From the NCBI GenBank assembly GCA_002747515.1, contig PDPP01000018.1:21751-85750 (forward strand): a DNA stretch of 64,000 bases. The letters are read 5' to 3'. Shown here piece by piece: positions 22,064 through 49,924 of the stretch. Position numbers and translations under genes: made by a program. The DNA comes from Candidatus Moraniibacteriota bacterium (lineage in GTDB: Bacteria > Patescibacteriota > Minisyncoccia > Moranbacterales > GCA-2747515). Under the pieces are notes generated by a model, which was given only the letters and a program-made list of their open reading frames with translations, searched no databases and had not been told where the DNA came from. How positions within the stretch are numbered: position 1 is the stretch's first letter; every line of letters begins with the position of its first letter.

Positions 22064-23710
22064 TTATTTTGATACCTTTGTTAAAATTTCTCCATCAGAA
22101 ACTTGTACAAAAAGCACATCATCTTTTATAATATCATCTTTTTTACGAATAACATTTCCTTTTACATTTCTTGCAATACTGTATCCTAGTGCAAGTTGCC
22201 TTTGTGGATCGTTGTGTGTAAGTGTTTTTTCATAAGTATATAATTTCTCTTTGATATATGTGATACGCGTAGCAACTGATTTAATGAAGTATGTAATATC
22301 AAAAGCTCTCTTCACATTATCCAGAGAATATTGAAAATGTTGATGTATTTTTTCTTGTGATTGCTGTATATGCACTTTTTGTGATTGAATATGTGTATCA
22401 ATTTTTTGCACAGAAAGAAAAAAACGATGAAACACTTGACTGAAATGCTCTGTAAGTGTAGTAAATTGTGCAAAAATATTGCGCTCTATATGTGCAATTA
22501 CATGTTTTTGTTGTTGAAGCACTTTGTCAAAAGTGTTTATAATTATACTTTCATAATTTTGTACACGTTTATCACATGCATCCCAGCTTTCTCGCACAGA
22601 TCGTGCTGCTCCAGTTGGCGTACTTGCACCAACGTCTGCGACAAGTGTCGCAAGTGTTTCATCTTCGTCATGCCCCACACCCACAATTACCGGCACGGGA
22701 AAATCTGTAATCATCCGGATAATCGTTTCGTTATTAAACGCTTGTAAACTCTCCAAACTTCCACCACCGCGCACCAAAACCAACACATCAATATCTTTTT
22801 TTGCCATTTCTTCTAGCGCACTTTTTATATCACGCAGTGCATATGCACCTTCTACGCTCGTATGATGAAAAATAATTTTATATCCATATTGTCCAACATT
22901 ACTCGTAAAATCTCCAATTGCTGCACCTGTACGTGATGTAATAAGTCCAATTTTCTCTGGCAATTGTAGCAATACTCTTTTTTTCTCACTACTAAACAAT
23001 CCTTCTTCACTGAGTTTTTTCTTGAGATCATCATATGCTTTTTTGAGCGCACCTTCACCATAAAGTTCTAGAGTATTACCCATAAAACCAAATCCGTATT
23101 GCTTGTGATAACTAGGCTGTCCTGTGATAATAATCTCCATACCATCTTCCAATTGTATACCAGAAAGTTCATAATTTGAACGAAAAACTGTACACCGTAA
23201 AACACTATCTTTATCTTTAATCTGAAAATATGCATGTCCATTTGCATTTTGTTTAAATCCCACCACTTCTCCCTGTACACGCACACGACGAAAATTTGTC
23301 CGAAGCATTGTATCAAGCATCGTCACAAATTCTGTCACAGTTATAGAATCATCTTTTTTGTCTTCAATTACTTCACCCGTTTCAGGATTAAACTGCACTT
23401 CTGCTCCTTTGGGATTTTGACTAGAAAGCGCAATATCATTGACTACTTCTGCCTCAGAAAAAAGATCCATACTACTTTGTGCCTCACCACCAACTACACC
23501 ATTTCCTCGCACGATATGCAAAATATCATCACCATATTTACGCACTTTCGCTGGACCAATACCTTTGATACGAAGAAGTTCGTCATGCGTCTTCGGCTCG
23601 ATACGTACAATTTCTTTTATTGTATTAAATTGTAAAACCATGTACGGCTCTAAATGTTCCTTTCGTGCTTGATCTTGTTGCCAACTGATTAATTTTTGCA
23701 TCAATGTCAT
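22064..23710 (-). CDS. xseA: Exodeoxyribonuclease VII large subunit with additional N-terminal HRDC-like domain
   Basis: Residues about 120-548 match XseA (OB-fold RVRVQGEVVGFKQNANGHAYFQIKD, catalytic and coiled-coil regions). Residues about 10-75 resemble an HRDC fold (EHLEPYMVLQFNTIKEIVRIEPKTHDELLRIKGIGPAKVRKYGDDIL). Confidence 0.75.
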   Translation of the reverse strand: MTLMQKLISWQQDQARKEHLEPYMVLQFNTIKEIVRIEPKTHDELLRIKGIGPAKVRKYGDDILHIVRGNGVVGGEAQSSMDLFSEAEVVNDIALSSQNPKGAEVQFNPETGEVIEDKKDDSITVTEFVTMLDTMLRTNFRRVRVQGEVVGFKQNANGHAYFQIKDKDSVLRCTVFRSNYELSGIQLEDGMEIIITGQPSYHKQYGFGFMGNTLELYGEGALKKAYDDLKKKLSEEGLFSSEKKRVLLQLPEKIGLITSRTGAAIGDFTSNVGQYGYKIIFHHTSVEGAYALRDIKSALEEMAKKDIDVLVLVRGGGSLESLQAFNNETIIRMITDFPVPVIVGVGHDEDETLATLVADVGASTPTGAARSVRESWDACDKRVQNYESIIINTFDKVLQQQKHVIAHIERNIFAQFTTLTEHFSQVFHRFFLSVQKIDTHIQSQKVHIQQSQEKIHQHFQYSLDNVKRAFDITYFIKSVATRITYIKEKLYTYEKTLTHNDPQRQLALGYSIARNVKGNVIRKKDDIIKDDVLFVQVSDGEILTKVSK

Positions 23711-23992: not shown

Positions 23993-24739
23993 ATGGCAGA
24001 AAAAAAAGTTTTTTTCAAAGTAGTTCGAGCAAAAAATGAGCAAATCAGATGGAATGATATTTACAATGACATAAAAATGTGCTTTCCAAAAGATGCAGAA
24101 GAATTTATCAAGATTATACAATTCTTCAAAGAAACAAAAAATAAACCAGTACTTCATAGTAGACTTGACACAAAAAAAAGCATTGCAGAAGTAAATAAAG
24201 TTCTTGCAGAAGCACAGTCACCATACCAATTACAAACATCTGACACAAAAAAAGGTGTTTCTGATGAAAAAAGAACATGGTCTCTCTGGAGAAAAAAACC
24301 AAAATATGTCATTAAAAACATCCCAGATCATACATCTATCAAATGGGATAAGCTTCAAAAATCTTTTGAAGCAATGGCAAAATCAGCGGTATTGATTCAC
24401 ATCATATCAATTTTTAAAAAAGCAAACAATACACCAACGCCATATGCAGATTTAGGAATTCCTAATTATCTAAGTGTGCAAGATATCAATAGCACTCTCA
24501 GAAATGCTGGATTTTCATATCGACTGTATTCTCCAGAAAAATCTGAAAAAGGGAATGATTTTAATCGAAATTGGCAGCTTGGTGTAAGTATTGAAATTGA
24601 TGTGACAGATTTCTCAAAACTCAACCCACAAATTTTATTGTCAAAATACACCGAATTGTGTAAAGAACATCCAAAATGCTCACAAGCACGGATGATGCGC
24701 AAAGAAATGTTACGGCGCATGCGGACAATAAAACAATAA
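23993..24739 (+). CDS. Hypothetical protein (248 aa)
   Basis: Clean ORF with AGGAG SD, terminator downstream. No recognisable domain. Confidence 0.5.
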   Translation: MAEKKVFFKVVRAKNEQIRWNDIYNDIKMCFPKDAEEFIKIIQFFKETKNKPVLHSRLDTKKSIAEVNKVLAEAQSPYQLQTSDTKKGVSDEKRTWSLWRKKPKYVIKNIPDHTSIKWDKLQKSFEAMAKSAVLIHIISIFKKANNTPTPYADLGIPNYLSVQDINSTLRNAGFSYRLYSPEKSEKGNDFNRNWQLGVSIEIDVTDFSKLNPQILLSKYTELCKEHPKCSQARMMRKEMLRRMRTIKQ

Positions 24740-28055: not shown

Positions 28056-28787
28056 TCATTTTCGACGATCATCAAAAAACCCACTTCTTTCACCCACTTT
28101 TCGACGATCATGAAAACAAATACAATTACGGCCAGCAGACTTTGCTCTATACAGTGCTTCATCTGCATATTTAATGACTAGATCAAGCTCCATTGAGCTA
28201 TCACTCGGCACAAAACATACACCAAAGCTTACTGTTACAGACAACTTGCAATCTGCCTGATCCGTTTGTACAGCAGATATAGAATTTTTATATCTTTGAG
28301 CAAGTGGCTTCACATCTTCTTCACCTAAATTAAGCATGAAAATAAGAAACTCATCACCACCATGTCGCACGATATAATCACTTTGACGTGCAACCTCTCT
28401 AAACATCTGCGTAACATTCACAAGAACCTGATCACCACAAGGATGTCCATATGCATCATTAATTGCTTTAAAGTGATCAATGTCAAATATGATTAAGCCC
28501 CATGATTCTTTGTTTCGCTTTTTCTCAAAGACGCGCTGTTTCATGATACGTTCAACAAACAAATGATTATAACAACCCGTTAAATGATCAATCATTGCAT
28601 GTTTTGCAGTTTGTTCCAACTCATTCTGCAATTTTTCATTTTGCTTTTCTAATTCTGCAACTTTTTTTTGCAGATTAGTTATAATCATTTGAGTAGCATT
28701 TTTGACTTCACTCAATCCTCTCGATACTCTACTAGAATTTCCTGTAATAGAAACTACATCCTGAACACCTTTTTTTTCTGACATCAT
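28056..28787 (-). CDS. Diguanylate cyclase (stand-alone GGDEF domain with N-terminal coiled-coil)
   Basis: Active-site RHGGDEF and the usual Mg/GTP-binding Asp region (IIFDIDHFKAINDAYGH). Confidence 0.75.
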   Translation of the reverse strand: MMSEKKGVQDVVSITGNSSRVSRGLSEVKNATQMIITNLQKKVAELEKQNEKLQNELEQTAKHAMIDHLTGCYNHLFVERIMKQRVFEKKRNKESWGLIIFDIDHFKAINDAYGHPCGDQVLVNVTQMFREVARQSDYIVRHGGDEFLIFMLNLGEEDVKPLAQRYKNSISAVQTDQADCKLSVTVSFGVCFVPSDSSMELDLVIKYADEALYRAKSAGRNCICFHDRRKVGERSGFFDDRRK

Positions 28788-32151: not shown

Positions 32152-33567
32152 TTATTTTGCGTTTTTTATTTTTGCAAGACGTACAAGTCGAATATTTTCA
32201 TAAGAATATTTTTCAGAACATTTTTCATATATTGGTCGCAAAAATTCATCTCCACATACTTGAAATGCTTCTATGATTTCTTCTTGCACTTTTTTGTTTG
32301 GTAATAAATGTGTGATATCCACAGAATAATCGCTATTTTTTATTTCTTCTATATACTTTATAATTGTTTCCTTAGATATTCCTAACTCTTTTACAATTTC
32401 TTCTAGTGTTTTTTGTTTTTCTAATAATTCTTTTGTTTTGTTTAGTCGTGATTGTTTTGAATCGGATGTCATTCTATTACACACACGTTTTTTCTTTCTT
32501 ACTTTTTCTACGCTCTTCAATCCTTTTTGTAATTTTATTTCATTAATACACTCTATAAATACATCTGCATATTTAGCTAATTTTTGACGTCCTACACCAG
32601 AAATTTCTGCAAAAGCCTCTCGCGTTACTGGCAAATAATGCGCCATTTCACGAAGAGACACATCACCAAAAATGACAAAAGCTGGTACATTTTGTTCACT
32701 TGCAATGTGTGTACGCAACTCTCTCAAAGATGCAAACACATTTTCATCGAAATTCAATTCTTCTCTGCGCTTTTTTTCTGGGACAAATAATATACGTTTC
32801 TTTGTGATGCGTGGCAATTCTATATTTTCACGATTTTGGAGAAAATCTGCGCCTTTTTGTGATATGCGATAGGTATCATATTCCCCTGCATTACGCACGA
32901 CAAAACCTCTCGCAATAATATGTGTCATTATTTCTGCAATCTCTGCTGTAGAATATTCTTTTGCAATCCCCCACACAGATAATTTTTCATGTCCTCGAGA
33001 AATAATATTTTTATCTTTTGAGCCACGCAACACTTTTATCACATGCGCTTTGCCAAACATATTGCCCGTTTTATACACCGCAGATAATATCTTTTGCACA
33101 ATTTCTGTGGCATCCTCTGTATCATGTTCAGCAATACATACATCACACGTACCACACGGCTTCAATCCAACATCCCCAAAATATGATGTAATCCATTGCC
33201 ATCTGCAAATCCGAGCTTCTGCATAATCCATCACTTCTCGCATCTTTTTTTCTTCACTCATTCGCCTATTCTCATCCATCTCTTTCAAAAAATAATCCAA
33301 CTTCATTTTGTCTCCCGATGAATAAAAAAGCACACACTCACTCGTCAACCCATCACGTCCTGCACGTCCGATTTCTTGATAATATCCTTCTACTGTTTTT
33401 GGAAATGTCCGATGCACGACTAGTCGCACATCCGGCTTATCAATCCCCATACCAAATGCAATCGTCGCCACCACAACGCGCACTTTATCCATCACAAAAT
33501 CATCTTGGACACTGTCACGCTCTTCTGGTGTAAGTCCTGCATGATATGCTGCCGCTGGCACACCTTT
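32152..33567 (-). CDS. recQ: ATP-dependent DNA helicase RecQ, C-terminal portion (helicase C, RQC, HRDC, C-terminal extension); frame-disrupted relative to N-terminal portion
   Basis: AAAYHAGL...VVATIAFGMGIDKPDVRLVVH...YYQEIGRAGRDG; HRDC LRELRTHIASEQNVPAFVIFGDVSLREMA. Reading frame differs by 1 nt from the upstream fragment. Confidence 0.6.
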   Translation of the reverse strand, partial: KGVPAAAYHAGLTPEERDSVQDDFVMDKVRVVVATIAFGMGIDKPDVRLVVHRTFPKTVEGYYQEIGRAGRDGLTSECVLFYSSGDKMKLDYFLKEMDENRRMSEEKKMREVMDYAEARICRWQWITSYFGDVGLKPCGTCDVCIAEHDTEDATEIVQKILSAVYKTGNMFGKAHVIKVLRGSKDKNIISRGHEKLSVWGIAKEYSTAEIAEIMTHIIARGFVVRNAGEYDTYRISQKGADFLQNRENIELPRITKKRILFVPEKKRREELNFDENVFASLRELRTHIASEQNVPAFVIFGDVSLREMAHYLPVTREAFAEISGVGRQKLAKYADVFIECINEIKLQKGLKSVEKVRKKKRVCNRMTSDSKQSRLNKTKELLEKQKTLEEIVKELGISKETIIKYIEEIKNSDYSVDITHLLPNKKVQEEIIEAFQVCGDEFLRPIYEKCSEKYSYENIRLVRLAKIKNAK

Positions 33568-34333
33568 CTTGCACGAGAAATTGTGCAACTTCTTCTGTTT
33601 CTTTGCGGCTAAAACAATAAATAATTGCAGACTCTCCATCATGTTTTTGTAGCAAATGTACGATATGTCTATCCACACCACTTTTTGGCATCACACTAAT
33701 ATGCAAATTTTCACGATAAAAACCTGATACAAATACCTTGTAATCATGTAACCCTAATTCCTTGATAATATCTGTGCGCACATGCTCTGTAGCAGATGCT
33801 GTTAATGCAATAATAGGAATATGTGGAAAACGTGCACGAATTTTTTTTAAATTCCGATAATCTGGACGAAAATCATGTCCCCACTGCGAAATACAATGTG
33901 CCTCATCCACCGCAAGCGCAGTAACCGGCACACGTGCAAGCCAATTCTGCACATACGCATTTGCCAAACGCTCTGGCGCAATATAGATCAACTTATACCC
34001 TCCCGCCTCAGCAATCTGCATCCGTTCATCCAATTCACGGTTCGACACAGAAGAATTCAACATCGTCGCTGCAACACCATTGGCATTGAGTGCATCAACC
34101 TGATCTTTCATCAAAGAAATCAATGGAGAAATCACGATCGTCACACCATCACGCATAATAGCTGGCAACTGAAAACATAGGGATTTCCCTCCACCAGTCG
34201 GCATCACCACAACAGTATCTCCCCCAGCAGAAAAATGATCTATCACATCTTTTTGCACACTCCGAAATGCATCATGACCAAAATATTTTTTTAATAATTT
34301 TTCCATAAAAATAAATTCATATCTGTATAACAA
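33515..34333 (-). CDS. recQ: ATP-dependent DNA helicase RecQ, N-terminal portion (DEAH helicase domain 1), terminates prematurely after frame change near 33565
   Basis: MPTGGGKSLCFQLPA (Walker A), AVDEAHCISQWGHDFRP (DEAH box). Confidence 0.6.
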   Translation of the reverse strand: MLYRYEFIFMEKLLKKYFGHDAFRSVQKDVIDHFSAGGDTVVVMPTGGGKSLCFQLPAIMRDGVTIVISPLISLMKDQVDALNANGVAATMLNSSVSNRELDERMQIAEAGGYKLIYIAPERLANAYVQNWLARVPVTALAVDEAHCISQWGHDFRPDYRNLKKIRARFPHIPIIALTASATEHVRTDIIKELGLHDYKVFVSGFYRENLHISVMPKSGVDRHIVHLLQKHDGESAIIYCFSRKETEEVAQFLVQERCASGSISCRTYTRRA

Positions 34334-43615: not shown

Positions 43616-46600
43616 TTATAATCCTCCCACCTCTAATTGGAAATCGCGTGAGATTTGTGGACCTCCTGCCCCAGAGATATCCACATCAAATGAATAATCC
43701 AACGTCTCAATTCCACCAGTTGTTCGCTCGTGATCAAAATAAACTGCTATACCATTATTTAGATCAAATGGTGACGTTGTTGTTGCACTTACTGGCACCG
43801 TTCCTGGAAATGGTGGAAATGTAAACTGTGAATTTACTGTTTGTGTTGACATCTCAAAAAGCTCCGTATCTGCTTGTGTGAACACGCCACTATTCGACAC
43901 ATCTCTAAATGTTATAAATGCTTCAGAATTGTTGAGACCTATATCATTTGTAGCTGCTTTTATTACACGATATCTTTCTGAATTTCCACTTGTTGCACCT
44001 ACAACTGATATTGTTGGACTGTTTAGTTGATCCTCGAGAAGTGTCGGCACATAATAACCCATATTTGCATTGTAAATGCGTGGCGCATACGCCTGATCTG
44101 CTGTACGAAGATATATACGCACACGCACACAACTGTGATCACTGACAATATCATCCAAAAACGCCTGTTGCGTATTTGTCGTATATGTTACATCCGGATT
44201 TGATGTATCTACTGACGACGCGATAACTGTCGGTGTAATTGATGTATACGTGTATGATGCTGTGTTACATGTTGGTGATGGATCGGCATACCCCACTTCA
44301 TAACTCACTTGTTCCACACCATTTTGCCCACTACGCGAATTCACAAGCTCTTCCCACGTAATGTCACGCCAATAAGTGTGCTCACCATATGTCAGTGTAC
44401 TTGTATCAAGCGTGTATTCCGCATATGCTTCAAAATCATTGCCTGTTGTCGTGCTGTCGCGTCCTGATTCATAAAATAATCCCTCTTCATAATCCGGCTG
44501 ATCATGCACCGGCTCTACATACGCACGTTTACGCACCTGTGGCCATGTCAACCATGATGTTTCATCTGTAACGGCTGCATTTAAATGATGTTCATAATAT
44601 GCATATACCGGCTCTGTACATTGTAAGCTGTATCCCGCATCAAAATAGGCACCATCAGTTGTGTCCGCACCACCAATATGAATACGATTTATGTATGGAT
44701 CTGTGCGTGTACCACCTGTTTGTGGCGGAATATTATTCATTGTGCCCGTACTATCCGTGGTCACTTCTGCACCGGTGTCATCATACACGCGACATGTCAC
44801 GTTTGCATCGCGTGCCACAATACTAAAGTATTGCGCAGGCTGAGATAATACATATTCATCACTAAACTCTTTCTGTGAAAGAAACGTCACTGTTTCAATA
44901 CCATCATAATCTGCAAGACTATTTGCACCAATTGGCGCATCAGACACAATGTGATATCCCATAGCAGTTCCCTGTGCGCCACTACCGGACTCTTCATACA
45001 CAAAGTTATTTGAACTGTTGAGCACAATAGTGGAGGATGTGCCATTGCTTCTATAAATCGTCACATTTGCATCAGAACTTGCCGCAAGAAGCATGTTGCT
45101 ACTTCCAATACCATATAATTCATAGCTACCGGAGTCCTCCTCAAGAGCAAGGTGTGTTGGATAGAGAATCTGCGAATCTCCAACGCCAGCCCGATGAAAC
45201 GCAAGAATCGGTTCATCAGAAAGAATTCTAAACGCACGATTATTTGTAATATCCTGTGCGACATTCATCGCACCATCTTCTCCCACAAAAACTGTTTGTA
45301 GATCAACCCACCCACTAGGACCACTTTCTTGGATATGAACTTCTGTATCAGCAAATGGTGCATAAAAACTAAATGCATCTGTATCACGATTAACGTGATA
45401 CACAAATTCCGTACCGGCATATGCGATCGGCAGTGCTGCTTCTGTTGTATCACTGGTAAATGCTGCATGGATTGGACCGTTAACACTATACACTTCCGCT
45501 TGCACATTATCGGTAGGAGACGAAAATGGCAAAGTAACAATTTCACCTTCATCGACAGTCTCAGAATTCGCACTATCATTTACACTATTGTTATCCGCAA
45601 AAGAAATAAGTGATGGCGTATTTCCTACCCATAGATTATCTACAATATAATAATTCGTTTTTTCGTCTTGTGTGCGAAAAATGGCATCATGATCGCCGGT
45701 TGTTGTGAGAGCTGATGATGTGCCGGAAATCCATTTTTCCGTGAGATATGTCTCAATTTCTGATACCTCTGCTGCTGTCAGTTGTTTATCAAAAACAATA
45801 AATTCTCCAAGTGTAATATCTTGTTCATAAGTACCACTCGGATACCCAGATAACATGAAGTCACTATTACTTCCTGTAAAACTGATACCATTGTTGTCAC
45901 TGGCAATATTTGTTCCATCACGTGCAATAGACCGCGGTCCACTACTGTGCGCTTCATAGCGCATGACATGAAAATCAGTTGTGTCGCCCCCATATGCTGC
46001 TGTAAGATAACCGGAGTTTCCTTGTTGATAATACACCGTCATATTCCACGGTGACCATGCCGCATAACGACCACCACTGAGATTTTCATAAAACAACGCA
46101 CCATTTTCCGGTAAAACATCATTACGAAATACCGCAAAAACATAGGAGTCGTTATGTGTGCTTGTTCCCCAAATACCGTTATCTATAGCCATGTGGTCAG
46201 ATGCAAATTGAAGATATTGATTGTCGCCAACCGTTATCACTGTTGGCTGATTATTGCCAGACGCCTCCGCATCAAAATTATTTCCCGACTTATCATCCCA
46301 CTGCGATACATTCCCGCCAGAAGTTGATAATGTCGCTGTATCAAGTGCATCCAACCACACATGCGGACCATACGTGGATAGATCAATTGTTGGCTGATAG
46401 TAGATATATGCTGTTACAGAAGAACTTGCTCCAATATTTGCAAACTTTATCCACATGTCACCAGCATTTGTGGTATCATCATAATTCTCAAGTGAATAGG
46501 TGATATTATCTGTCCCATCTCCCGCACTACCGGCAACACGAATATCACCACCATCGGATTGTGCACGACCAAAAACCGTGCTCACATCCGCACCCAAATC

Positions 46601-49600
46601 AATACGCATTTGATATTCTGTGAGATTCGTCGAAGATGGATTATTAACAGTAATCGGTACACGTCGCATCCACACGTGCGTTCCATCAATACTCCACGCA
46701 CCGGTTTCTTCTGCACCGGCGGTGTAGTTTGGCGTTGGATAAATAAACTGTTTGTTTTGCACTTCATTCCACGCATTATGCTCATCATTGACGTTCCCTT
46801 CTTCATAATATGCAGAAATCGGATTGTCTGCCACAATACATGCGCCTTTTGCAATGTGTACACCACTTGATGTAGATCCAAAATACGCTTTACCTGGATA
46901 TGTCGCAGCGGCTGTCACAGTGACTGTATCATCCGGCGTGCCAGTACCACATGCCGTACCATCATTATAGAGGTCAACGGTTGTCGTACGCCCTTCTTTT
47001 GTCGCAATCGCAATGTATTGCATGTCTTCTGGAAAATAATAACGATACCCCATCTCATGTGTTGGTAAAAATGTTGTTGCTTCACCACCATCACCATCTG
47101 CAAGTGAATTGACACCAATTGGCCCATCTGCTACGACACGGTGTGCCGGTTCCGATCCTTGTGATCCCGCATCGTTAATCACGTGATTATCACCACGGTT
47201 TAACGTGTAATTCGCCGTTGTGCCATCACTGCGATACACCGTGACATCTGTGGCATCATATAATGCAGCAATTTCAAGTCTACCAGATCCCACACCATAC
47301 CACTCTTCAGATGCCGGTGCCATCACAAAACTATCACTCCCATTTGTTGCATGATGCGTGACGAGAATTGGACAACTGTTTGTCGACTCAATCATCACAG
47401 CAGAATCATTACTTAGTCCCGTCGTTGCATTATTGTCTGTTGTGAGATTGTAAAAATCACCTGTTGTAACAGTAAATGATCCATTTGTCACAATGTTGTT
47501 ATTTTCATTGCGCACCTCCACATTTGCATCACACCACGGCGAAATAAAAGAAAATGCATTTGTCCCACGATCCATGCGATACACAAACGCCGTACCAGCA
47601 AAACTCGCCGGCACAAAGTTATCCGCTCCATCTACACCATACCCGCCACTAATCGGGTCAGTTGTAGAAATACCTGTTGTTTGCTCAATTGTTGCAACAT
47701 TTGACACTGGAAATGCGTGTGTATCTGCCTCATATTGGTTCAATGTATCATTATATGTTTCAACAGAAATCTCATTGTTATCAATATAACTGGCAAATTC
47801 AGTCGTAGACCCATTTGCCGTGTCTTGCACAACGTAGTAAATATCTTCTCGGTTTTGATACGTAAATACTTCCTCACGTGACGCAATATCCGCTGCACCG
47901 GTATTGCCATAATACATGCATACTTCTTCCGTTTCGCCTGCATCAATATTGTCCATTTCAAGCCACACACGTGTTGACGCCGTATTCATGTCGTCCGCGA
48001 CATAATGATGCAGGACATTTTCATCACTGTCGATAAATCGTATATCACTACCATCGGATTGCATTTTACCGTCAGTAACCAATGTTTCTGTATCAAAATC
48101 AAGATAAATTTGGTATTCTGTGAGGTCTGCAGCACTTGCTTGTGTGTGATCCACAGTAAAACACTGACGATACTTCCACACACTGTATTCATTGCTATTC
48201 AACGTCACACACAAAAGCTCCGGACTCATTGTGTTGTTGTCCGTCTCAAAAAATGCGCGCCACTGCACGTAACGATTATCCGAGATACCCGTCAAAGGCA
48301 ATGCCGGCAAATTCACTGTGTCATTCATGAGTTCCGTATAATATGTGCTACCTGTACCATCCGGACCAATAAATGATTCCCCAGAACACGCTGCATCATC
48401 ACAACTACGCACTTGAAATTTCAAACGATTTGCACCACGTCGATACTGATCATATACTTCTTCATCAGTTAACACATCACTCCAAAATGATACTTCATCA
48501 AGATTGCCCTGGTAATAATGATGTGCTCCACCGGAATCATGCATGCGACCAATGCTATCAAAATATTCTGTCTTATTACCGGTATCGGATATCGCTGTGT
48601 CTTCTAAAAACCCATCAACATACACTGCGACTTCGCCACTCGTTGCATTACGCGTCAGTACCACATGATGCCACTGACCATCATTGATTACCGTTGTACT
48701 TTCAGCACCAGCTATATTCCCTGCTTGCACGGCAATGTGGCCACTGCCCGTAATATAGCCCCAAAAAATATCATTACCACCACCAGCTTGCTCTGATCCT
48801 GTAATTCCTGGAGCATTCCATGGTATATTAGAACCATTTTGTGTCGTATTCATCCAAAAAGCCATGCTTGCCGTGCCACCAATGATATTACTAAGATCTT
48901 GGTTAAAATTAACAATATCATCCGAACCATCAAATCCCAATGCATTGCCTAATTTACCACCCTGATTCCACTGCGATCCATTATATGATCCATTTCCCGT
49001 TACGCCAGAAGTATCTGCGATTGGATTTGCAGATTCGTTGAGATGCACAAGTAAAATATTGTCACTCATATCCACATTACCATCACTATACACCGATTCA
49101 ACGCCAAGCGCGTCCGGCAATTCTTTCTCTGTTGGTCGCGTTGATGTCCATGTAATATCTGACCATGCAATCACAGAACCCGCATCAATAATATCTGATT
49201 CATACGTCCCAGCACCTGCTGCCAAACCACTAGATGTTAAATCCACCCACGCATTTGTATTATCCCACTCCGTATCGATAAAATTCCCCTGCAAAAATGC
49301 ATTGGCCGAGCATGTTTGAATATACTCGCCATCCCACCAATCTGTACGCACAGTGTCCGCTGGATGGTCACCATACGAACCGATTGTAAGATAATCATCC
49401 ACTCCTGCAATCGCCACGAGGTCGTCTTCACCAGTCTCAAAATTCCCATTTGAGTAACTCCCACTATCAAATTCTGCTTTTGAATCAGCTGTAGCAACTG
49501 TACGTGTTTCATATTTCAAAATATCAAGTCCTGCACCCACCACATTCTCACTTTCTGTAAAATTTTGCACACGAATTTCTGCCTCAATAAATTGTGGTCC

Positions 49601-49924
49601 ATAATATTGTGACGTAAGAATTGTAAGAATGAGAAAAGTTATTGCAAACATTGCCGCAATACCGCGATAAGCTCGCGGCACGAAAGCAAATTGGACCTGA
49701 GGTCTTAATGGTACAAGAATTTGACTTTTTGGTTTTAAGTCAACTTTTTTTGTCTTTATAAAATTATTTTTGAGCATCTTTTGCACATTTCTCTGTGCAC
49801 TTCTTCGCATAATATGAACACGAACCTTAGCAAAAGCCCTCTTTGGAAAAACAATCAATCTTCCAAGTAACGCTTGAATAATCAGAATCACATATTTAAT
49901 TATGAGGCTTTTTTTGCGGGGCAT
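43616..49924 (-). CDS. Giant (2102 aa) membrane-anchored cell-surface protein with two LamG/concanavalin A-like lectin domains and large internal repeats
   Basis: N-terminal TM anchor (GIAAMFAITFLILTIL). LamG-like segments (GNALGFDGSDDIVNF...QWHHVVLTRNATSGEVAVYVDG; YLQFASDHMAIDNG...FHVMRYEAHSSGPRS). About 500-aa modules repeated (PIGVNSLADGDGGEATTFL vs PIGANSLADYDGIETVTFL; AFSFISPWCDANVEV vs AFSFYAPFADTEVHI). Gly/Thr/Asn-rich. Confidence 0.75.
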   Translation of the reverse strand: MPRKKSLIIKYVILIIQALLGRLIVFPKRAFAKVRVHIMRRSAQRNVQKMLKNNFIKTKKVDLKPKSQILVPLRPQVQFAFVPRAYRGIAAMFAITFLILTILTSQYYGPQFIEAEIRVQNFTESENVVGAGLDILKYETRTVATADSKAEFDSGSYSNGNFETGEDDLVAIAGVDDYLTIGSYGDHPADTVRTDWWDGEYIQTCSANAFLQGNFIDTEWDNTNAWVDLTSSGLAAGAGTYESDIIDAGSVIAWSDITWTSTRPTEKELPDALGVESVYSDGNVDMSDNILLVHLNESANPIADTSGVTGNGSYNGSQWNQGGKLGNALGFDGSDDIVNFNQDLSNIIGGTASMAFWMNTTQNGSNIPWNAPGITGSEQAGGGNDIFWGYITGSGHIAVQAGNIAGAESTTVINDGQWHHVVLTRNATSGEVAVYVDGFLEDTAISDTGNKTEYFDSIGRMHDSGGAHHYYQGNLDEVSFWSDVLTDEEVYDQYRRGANRLKFQVRSCDDAACSGESFIGPDGTGSTYYTELMNDTVNLPALPLTGISDNRYVQWRAFFETDNNTMSPELLCVTLNSNEYSVWKYRQCFTVDHTQASAADLTEYQIYLDFDTETLVTDGKMQSDGSDIRFIDSDENVLHHYVADDMNTASTRVWLEMDNIDAGETEEVCMYYGNTGAADIASREEVFTYQNREDIYYVVQDTANGSTTEFASYIDNNEISVETYNDTLNQYEADTHAFPVSNVATIEQTTGISTTDPISGGYGVDGADNFVPASFAGTAFVYRMDRGTNAFSFISPWCDANVEVRNENNNIVTNGSFTVTTGDFYNLTTDNNATTGLSNDSAVMIESTNSCPILVTHHATNGSDSFVMAPASEEWYGVGSGRLEIAALYDATDVTVYRSDGTTANYTLNRGDNHVINDAGSQGSEPAHRVVADGPIGVNSLADGDGGEATTFLPTHEMGYRYYFPEDMQYIAIATKEGRTTTVDLYNDGTACGTGTPDDTVTVTAAATYPGKAYFGSTSSGVHIAKGACIVADNPISAYYEEGNVNDEHNAWNEVQNKQFIYPTPNYTAGAEETGAWSIDGTHVWMRRVPITVNNPSSTNLTEYQMRIDLGADVSTVFGRAQSDGGDIRVAGSAGDGTDNITYSLENYDDTTNAGDMWIKFANIGASSSVTAYIYYQPTIDLSTYGPHVWLDALDTATLSTSGGNVSQWDDKSGNNFDAEASGNNQPTVITVGDNQYLQFASDHMAIDNGIWGTSTHNDSYVFAVFRNDVLPENGALFYENLSGGRYAAWSPWNMTVYYQQGNSGYLTAAYGGDTTDFHVMRYEAHSSGPRSIARDGTNIASDNNGISFTGSNSDFMLSGYPSGTYEQDITLGEFIVFDKQLTAAEVSEIETYLTEKWISGTSSALTTTGDHDAIFRTQDEKTNYYIVDNLWVGNTPSLISFADNNSVNDSANSETVDEGEIVTLPFSSPTDNVQAEVYSVNGPIHAAFTSDTTEAALPIAYAGTEFVYHVNRDTDAFSFYAPFADTEVHIQESGPSGWVDLQTVFVGEDGAMNVAQDITNNRAFRILSDEPILAFHRAGVGDSQILYPTHLALEEDSGSYELYGIGSSNMLLAASSDANVTIYRSNGTSSTIVLNSSNNFVYEESGSGAQGTAMGYHIVSDAPIGANSLADYDGIETVTFLSQKEFSDEYVLSQPAQYFSIVARDANVTCRVYDDTGAEVTTDSTGTMNNIPPQTGGTRTDPYINRIHIGGADTTDGAYFDAGYSLQCTEPVYAYYEHHLNAAVTDETSWLTWPQVRKRAYVEPVHDQPDYEEGLFYESGRDSTTTGNDFEAYAEYTLDTSTLTYGEHTYWRDITWEELVNSRSGQNGVEQVSYEVGYADPSPTCNTASYTYTSITPTVIASSVDTSNPDVTYTTNTQQAFLDDIVSDHSCVRVRIYLRTADQAYAPRIYNANMGYYVPTLLEDQLNSPTISVVGATSGNSERYRVIKAATNDIGLNNSEAFITFRDVSNSGVFTQADTELFEMSTQTVNSQFTFPPFPGTVPVSATTTSPFDLNNGIAVYFDHERTTGGIETLDYSFDVDISGAGGPQISRDFQLEVGGL

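Follow-up and report, generated by a model that had tools for sequence, protein, structure and literature searches.

Conservation of an N-terminal HRDC domain on the exonuclease VII large subunit XseA in Patescibacteria

In Escherichia coli, exonuclease VII (ExoVII) assembles from large and small subunits as XseA4:XseB24 (8txr). Its DNA-binding element is the OB fold, deletion of which abolishes both binding and activity, and activity further requires residues D155, R205, H238 and D241 (PMC3439923); the helical domain of XseA is the XseB-binding element (PMC3439923, PMC10835039). The OB domains and catalytic domains from the four chains of XseA form a catenated, autoinhibited head, which dissociates into active halves with DNA but not with RNA (PMC10835039). 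HRDC domains are familiar from other enzymes, where they serve as auxiliary binders of nucleic acid. In E. coli RecQ, where the HRDC lies C-terminal to the helicase, the substitution Y555A abolishes ssDNA binding; RecQ and BLM HRDCs also contact the motor core and thereby suppress ATPase activity, an effect that does not depend on ssDNA binding, and DNA affinity differs widely among HRDC domains (PMC4464074). RNase D and Rrp6 (1yt3, 2hbj and 3saf) likewise pair an exonuclease with an accessory HRDC, and the domain is an add-on in UvrD2-type helicases, in PIF1-like helicases (as N-terminal HRDCs) and in a GIY-YIG nuclease with four HRDCs.

We analysed a window of 64,000 nucleotides of DNA from Candidatus Moraniibacteriota, in which the HRDC and XseA occur in one polypeptide. 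Here xseA is a single ORF that opens with ATG (Table 1), and a database protein identical to it (P0001), from a Candidatus Moraniibacteriota MAG in NCBI, is annotated as exodeoxyribonuclease VII large subunit. The first-pass annotation of this DNA had placed the gene at the correct coordinates; its strand is corrected here to minus on the basis of the ORF list. Unlike E. coli XseA, which has ~14 residues before its aligned OB domain, this protein carries 121 extra residues, made up of an HRDC and a linker. Rfam and tRNA scans gave no match near the xseA locus, and a promoter and terminator scan, together with inspection for an upstream ribosome-binding site, was uninformative in this AT-rich DNA.

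Table 1 Features of the xseA-xseB locus, in window coordinates (res, residues of XseA).
Feature	Position	Strand	Basis
xseA CDS, 548 aa + stop: HRDC-linker-OB-catalytic-helical-CTD	22064..23710	-	ORF list, Pfam, NCBIfam
HRDC domain, res 3-69; helices 3-17, 22-25, 28-37, 42-46, 53-69	23504..23704	-	PF00570, PDB sequence matches, AF2, Foldseek; translation-checked
Disordered acidic linker, res 70-121	23348..23503	-	pLDDT <60 for 72-120; translation-checked
Linker motif DLFSEAEVVN, res 82-91	23438..23467	-	consensus [DS]LF.EA..VN
Linker motif NPETGEV, res 108-114, directly before OB fold	23369..23389	-	consensus D..TGE[IV]
OB-fold DNA-binding domain, res 122-216 (canonical XseA start)	23063..23347	-	PF13742, TIGR00237; translation-checked
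Catalytic domain, res 217-364, with D267, R314, H347, D350	22619..23062	-	alignment to E. coli XseA
Long alpha-helical stalk, res 365-499 (XseB-binding by homology)	22214..22618	-	AF2, 8txr alignment
C-terminal beta domain, res 500-548	22067..22213	-	AF2 strands 512-545; alignment with E. coli XseA reaches its residue 442
xseB, ExoVII small subunit, 66 aa	21775..21975	-	PF02609

Beyond its N-terminal extension, the protein appears to be an ordinary XseA and, judged by its sequence, an active one. The NCBIfam xseA equivalog TIGR00237 scores 314.5 bits (cutoff 180) over model positions 1-388 of 389, the OB-fold family PF13742 matches residues 123-207 (E=1e-20) directly before the catalytic domain, and PF02601 (Exonuc_VII_L) covers residues 238-543 (E=4e-63; 214 bits, cutoff 35.9). 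OB fold, catalytic residues, XseB-binding helix and C-terminal domain all have counterparts in E. coli XseA, to which the protein is 26-29% identical (8txr; E=1e-43). In the catalytic domain, the four residues D267, R314, H347 and D350 are by alignment the counterparts of E. coli D155, R205, H238 and D241, and are invariant in 101 aligned homologues. In the OB fold, E. coli F63/R64 are kept as F176/R177, whereas the E. coli pair R68/R69 is replaced by E181/L182 within a conserved YELSG motif. The E. coli residues R68 and R69 belong to a triple mutant that lost DNA binding.

A full-length AlphaFold2 (AF2) model of the single chain (mean pLDDT 85.9; pTM 0.53, from which docking of the HRDC on the head is not readable) has 8txr as its best PDB match (Foldseek E=2.5e-30), with OB strands at 143-216, an alpha/beta catalytic domain, helices at 365-470 and 472-499, and strands at 512-545. 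The gene for the partner subunit, xseB, sits on the same strand, 88 bp downstream (PF02609, E=2e-7; 31.2 bits, cutoff 24). Among 23 related loci, 17 have xseB after the fused xseA; of the remaining six contigs, several break off inside xseA or soon after it. The features of XseA and of the HRDC family that sequence and models can test were all found in the protein. It has no helicase core (DEAD/Helicase_C, Zn-binding and RQC domains are absent by Pfam) and is thus not a RecQ.

The extension itself is an HRDC domain, by sequence and by predicted fold. Its length follows from the alignments: TIGR00237 position 1 falls on residue 124, and residue 15 of the cryo-EM structure of E. coli XseA (8txr), where residues 15-104 cover the OB domain, falls on residue 128, so that ~113-121 residues precede the canonical XseA start, in line with the roughly 110 proposed in the first-pass annotation. 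PF00570 matches residues 3-67 with E=7.2e-17 (61.5 bits, cutoff 23.8; profile positions 4-68 of 68), and the isolated N-terminus reaches 65.0 bits against the same gathering cutoff. A PDB sequence search with residues 1-80 retrieved Deinococcus radiodurans HRDC1 (2ma1, E=1.2e-9), the E. coli RecQ HRDC (1wud, E=1e-4) and D. radiodurans HRDC3 (2rhf, E=0.014). The HRDC-like domain that the first-pass annotation had proposed was thereby upheld by Pfam and NCBIfam profiles and by PDB matches, with its boundaries moved from about residues 20-75 to residues 3-69.

The structure prediction that the same annotation had called for gave a confident five-helix bundle (AlphaFold2, residues 1-80, from 30 homologous N-termini; mean pLDDT 91.8). 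Its best Foldseek match is 1wud (TM 0.81-0.85, rmsd 0.6 A over 66 columns), and the top 31 PDB matches consist entirely of HRDC domains, from RecQ, WRN, BLM, RNase D and Rrp6; neither profile nor structure searches assigned the extension any fold other than HRDC. It shares with the RecQ HRDCs (1wud, 2ma1 and 2rhf) the five-helix fold, 27-32% identity and an aromatic residue equivalent to Y555. P39, G50 and Y59 are invariant among the aligned homologues and W10, K49, K55 and G60 nearly so, and the basic hairpin residues K49, K55 and K58 are 85-98% conserved. Y23 aligns with E. coli RecQ Y555, numbered here by counting back from the C-terminus of the E. coli sequence; among 225 fusions this position is aromatic in 220 (125 Y, 94 F and 1 W).

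To describe how far the architecture extends, as the first-pass annotation had suggested, we surveyed homologues at several scales. HRDC, OB and ExoVII_L domains occur together in 119 of the 120 best database homologues, drawn from NCBI, JGI, ENA and Logan assemblies and reaching down to 36% identity; the exception is a 325-aa fragment. An HRDC-linker-OB profile was run over 1.84 billion proteins, each representing a cluster at 50% identity, and matched 142 of them at E<=1e-30. When the top 150 were re-annotated with sub-profiles, 113 had the HRDC-OB-catalytic layout and 15 were HRDC-OB fragments, the rest being 19 unrelated multi-HRDC proteins and 3 without an HRDC; the fusion thus spans 113 or more of the 50%-identity clusters. 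A scan limited to a single genome for each species found 23 loci that match residues 1-216 in full, including one on the complete chromosome CP175956.1. These results confirm that the HRDC-XseA layout is real and conserved across the lineage, and identify it as a Patescibacteria architecture.

We give almost no credence to the notion that the extension is an annotation or assembly artefact, with a true start at Met81 or two genes fused by error. There is no Shine-Dalgarno-like sequence before the ATG at 23710, and the assembly carries at least one probable indel elsewhere, in recQ; against this, the same continuous frame recurs in more than 200 proteins from independent assemblies and in the 23 genome loci, the complete chromosome among them. 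A downstream start near residue 80, which the first-pass annotation had named as a way for its proposal to fail, was examined and rejected: the frame, conserved from residue 1-3 on, takes in the HRDC from residue 3, homologues begin alike (MTLMQKL...), and position 81 is not conserved, so it is the upstream start that has been kept.

All organism names that accompany a fusion belong to the Patescibacteria group, and the narrower names are all Parcubacteria: they comprise Moranbacteria/Moraniibacteriota, Kaiserbacteria, Pacebacteria/Paceibacterota, 'Parcubacteria group' and 'Patescibacteria group', with the lineage placement checked for Moraniibacteriota. Because the motifs used in the genome scan came from the closer clade, no stretch of the more diverse N-terminal alignment being conserved well enough to serve, which biases the survey to Moranbacteria-like sequences, and because most metagenomic proteins are nameless, we take this Patescibacteria-only range as the current evidence and not as proof. 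Six loci titled Micavibrio or Pseudobdellovibrionaceae were considered as cases from outside the group; they share the window's gene order GATase-xseA-xseB-porA-porB at 44-83% protein identity, and for this reason are almost certainly mislabelled.

Partial matches in the same scan separated into the two parent families. Those to the OB fold only were canonical XseAs of Clostridia, Gammaproteobacteria, Planctomycetes and others, and those to the HRDC only were mostly RecQ C-termini (35-45% identity) from Verrucomicrobia, Planctomycetes, Elusimicrobia and Acidobacteria; these RecQ HRDCs are the closest relatives outside XseA that the genomes yielded. One HRDC-only match was a Bacteroidales helicase with an HRDC at its end, Pif1/RecD-like on visual inspection. 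Close relatives without the domain also exist: P0259, an apparently complete XseA of 377 aa, lacks the HRDC and has a very similar OB fold, which indicates that the HRDC is not indispensable to the XseA core.

The window also encodes a recQ (32152..34333) with helicase core, Zn-binding and RQC domains. Its canonical HRDC, cited for comparison in the first-pass annotation, is indeed present (residues 313-379 of the ORF at 32152..33681, E=1.4e-20); the gene itself reads as two overlapping, out-of-frame ORFs, with a putative frameshift near 33,560. A recent duplication of this neighbouring HRDC as the source of the XseA domain was rejected, the two being 23% identical over 47 residues. With a profile of XseA-borne HRDCs, the window's RecQ HRDC reaches 32 bits, where the fusion HRDCs have a median of 92 bits. 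The XseA-borne domains have a mean column identity of 51%, and such tight conservation would fit one old acquisition. A database search with the 75-aa HRDC alone returned two short fragments, which say nothing about the origin of the domain. Profile-search matches also placed HRDCs on GIY-YIG, UvrD-like, PIF1-like and RecQ proteins. We considered a special Patescibacteria expansion of HRDC cassettes on repair enzymes and dismissed it: the multi-HRDC proteins come from Poribacteria, marine samples and an algal contig, and score high because their repeats add up.

The segment that joins the HRDC to the OB fold differs greatly among the fusions. Across 225 of them it is 8-178 aa long (median 37) and carries a negative net charge in 88%, and in the full-length model residues 70-121 are predicted to be disordered, with pLDDT mostly <60. 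Two insertions illustrate what the architecture tolerates: P0208 has a DUF559 (Vsr-like endonuclease) domain inside the linker, and P0246 has HEAT repeats ahead of the HRDC. Low pLDDT, variable length and tolerated insertions together point to a tethered, independently folding module as opposed to a rigid extension of the OB fold.

Both linker motifs of Table 1 are semi-conserved in the closer clade only and absent from the short-linker clade. The region of [DS]LF.EA..VN is weakly predicted to form an amphipathic helix at 83-95 (pLDDT ~55); relaxed to [LIMF]F.[ED][AFS], the motif occurs in 48 of the 225 fusions, and TGE[IVLM] in 68. Beta-clamp-binding motifs have the form QL[SD]LF, a pentapeptide that opens with Q followed by a hydrophobic residue and continues with [SD]LF. 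We compared the linker with this pattern and rejected a match, as only [DS]LF agrees and positions 1-2 hold variable small or polar residues (SM, GN, SN and GV); the three-residue resemblance is a lead only.

Set beside the other enzymes that carry an HRDC, the fusion differs in both its partner and its geometry. Its HRDC is N-terminal to a nuclease, and not C-terminal to a helicase as in RecQ. RNase D and Rrp6 are similar in joining an exonuclease to an HRDC (fold TM 0.74-0.84), but their DEDD nuclease fold is unrelated, their substrate is RNA, and their HRDC is C-terminal and packed on the enzyme, whereas that of XseA precedes the enzyme on a disordered tether. The UvrD2-type, PIF1-like and GIY-YIG enzymes have different cores and often tandem HRDCs, and are not restricted to Patescibacteria. 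Full-text searches of a literature library found no paper describing an HRDC-XseA fusion, and neither of the two ExoVII structure-function papers (PMC3439923, PMC10835039) mentions the HRDC. As the first-pass annotation maintained, this is not the textbook architecture, in which XseA starts at the OB fold. Since the combination is visible in precomputed Pfam annotations of public proteins, it is better called undescribed than undetected.

We lean towards reading the HRDC of XseA as an extra, tethered DNA-binding module that affects substrate capture. A functional ExoVII large subunit, paired with the adjacent XseB, would have gained a RecQ-type HRDC in Parcubacteria-type Patescibacteria, and the HRDC would act as an independent, flexibly tethered second nucleic-acid-binding module outside the ExoVII head. 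It could locally concentrate ssDNA or ss/ds-junction DNA, making it more available to the OB fold and to the sequestered active sites, and thereby influence which DNA ends or structures are captured, with a possible bias in substrate choice. The disordered linker of very variable length makes an independent tethered module the most likely arrangement, and because in E. coli ExoVII the tetramer head is made of OB domains and opens on DNA binding, an N-terminal appendage would sit where DNA is first engaged. The HRDC keeps the aromatic residue that E. coli RecQ requires for ssDNA binding; that the domain would bind DNA here and alter substrate capture is our inference, and it may also affect ExoVII autoinhibition. 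Redirection of ExoVII to structured DNA, as the first-pass annotation suggested, is a plausible hypothesis. The E/L pair at the R68/R69 positions of the OB fold gives a weak hint of a second DNA site; since these two positions vary among canonical XseAs too, a weakened OB basic patch is no more than suggested.

It is also possible, though we hold it unlikely, that the HRDC is mainly a regulatory or docking element, in which the HRDC or the amphipathic linker helix would bend back onto the OB/catalytic head and tune the autoinhibited tetramer-to-dimer switch, or would bring ExoVII to a partner protein such as RecQ, SSB or the replisome. Such a role would have precedents in the RecQ and BLM HRDCs, which act on the motor core independently of ssDNA binding (PMC4464074), and in E. 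coli ExoVII, which is autoinhibited through an OB-mediated tetramer (PMC10835039); clade-specific short motifs inside disorder are moreover typical of docking motifs. Yet these motifs occur in only ~20-30% of fusions and the linker shrinks to 8 aa, so a motif-based mechanism would not be general, and conservation of the Y555-equivalent aromatic suggests that DNA contact is retained. Further still from our preferred account is a combined role, which we regard as a long shot: HRDC and linker motifs would form a DNA-structure sensor or recruitment handle that gates the autoinhibited ExoVII tetramer, for example through opening at ss/ds junctions or stalled forks or through docking to a replisome or recombination partner. 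Even less probable, in our judgement, is that the HRDC is a lineage-specific neutral passenger with no effect on ExoVII. The promiscuity of the domain, which turns up on GIY-YIG, UvrD-like, PIF1-like and RecQ proteins, and the existence of XseA relatives that do without it would suit a passenger; however, HRDC residues are kept across proteins only 36% identical overall, the HRDC fold is predicted with confidence, and the reduced genomes of Patescibacteria would presumably have let a neutral appendage decay.

HRDC-XseA gives a known enzyme a new architecture, one that a large uncultivated lineage has conserved, and the consequence proposed for its function is plausible. Both domains are well known, the HRDC is promiscuous and Pfam flags the combination, so the fusion offers a useful hypothesis and no new principle. 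Its interest lies in an enzyme whose substrate choice is still being worked out, and for which the 2024 E. coli structure proposes steric autoinhibition relieved by DNA. Should the sensor reading hold, the genome-reduced Patescibacteria would have gained one multipurpose, targeted ssDNA nuclease, and the fusion would provide the first case from nature in which an accessory domain controls ExoVII. As a natural, widely conserved ExoVII with a second tethered domain, it amounts to a ready-made experiment on the control of substrate capture, and it adds to the picture of Patescibacteria elaborating the enzymes they retain despite minimal repair gene sets.

One complete XseA relative, P0259 (a 377-amino-acid protein encoded at positions 397-1530 of related locus L081), carries no HRDC, establishing that HRDC-less XseA relatives exist. 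Its OB fold is very similar and its stalk is shorter, and its gene is followed by an 85-amino-acid ORF. Additional domains also occur: XseA variant P0208, from Moranbacteria, has a DUF559/Vsr-like endonuclease domain within the HRDC-OB linker, and variant P0246 has HEAT repeats N-terminal to the HRDC.

Between the GATase gene and xseA, the window contains a 248-amino-acid ORF, divergent from xseA, that matches nothing in Pfam and is missing from all 23 related loci. GATase immediately adjoins xseA in 3 of these 23 (L003, L008 and L017), and the ORF is possibly a lineage-specific insertion. Six loci (L005, L006, L010, L011, L017 and L020) are MAG contigs labelled 'Micavibrio sp.' or 'Pseudobdellovibrionaceae'; all six show the Moranbacteria GATase-xseA-xseB-porA-porB synteny, with 44-83% protein identity to the window. 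These public taxonomic labels are probably wrong. Elsewhere in the window, we observed a 243-amino-acid GGDEF (diguanylate cyclase) protein, here in a small-genome lineage, and a 2,102-amino-acid ORF matching only Laminin_G_3 and DUF2341, which may encode a large surface or secreted protein.

Features of the window, with coordinates and strand
Feature	Position	Strand
GGDEF protein	28056..28787	-	
recQ ORF, Helicase_C, Zn-binding, RQC, HRDC, HTH_40	32152..33681	-
recQ ORF, DEAD domain	33515..34333	-
248-aa ORF	23993..24739	+
2,102-aa ORF	43616..49924	-	

The recQ of the window (32152..34333, minus strand), whose HRDC the first-pass annotation had used for comparison with that of XseA, appears in the sequence as two overlapping ORFs in different frames. 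The frame changes near 33,555-33,570 (minus strand), at about 'gtgcaagaaaggtgtgcc'. Either the assembly has an indel here or the gene is a pseudogene.

The profile search also recovered further HRDC-bearing enzymes from outside the window (P0125, P0195, P0263 and P0228). In one architecture a GIY-YIG domain is combined with a zinc knuckle and four HRDCs; UvrD-like helicases carry two or three copies of the HRDC, and a PIF1-like helicase has three at its N-terminus. Among sources with organism names, these other HRDC-bearing enzymes are of varied origins and are not specific to Patescibacteria.
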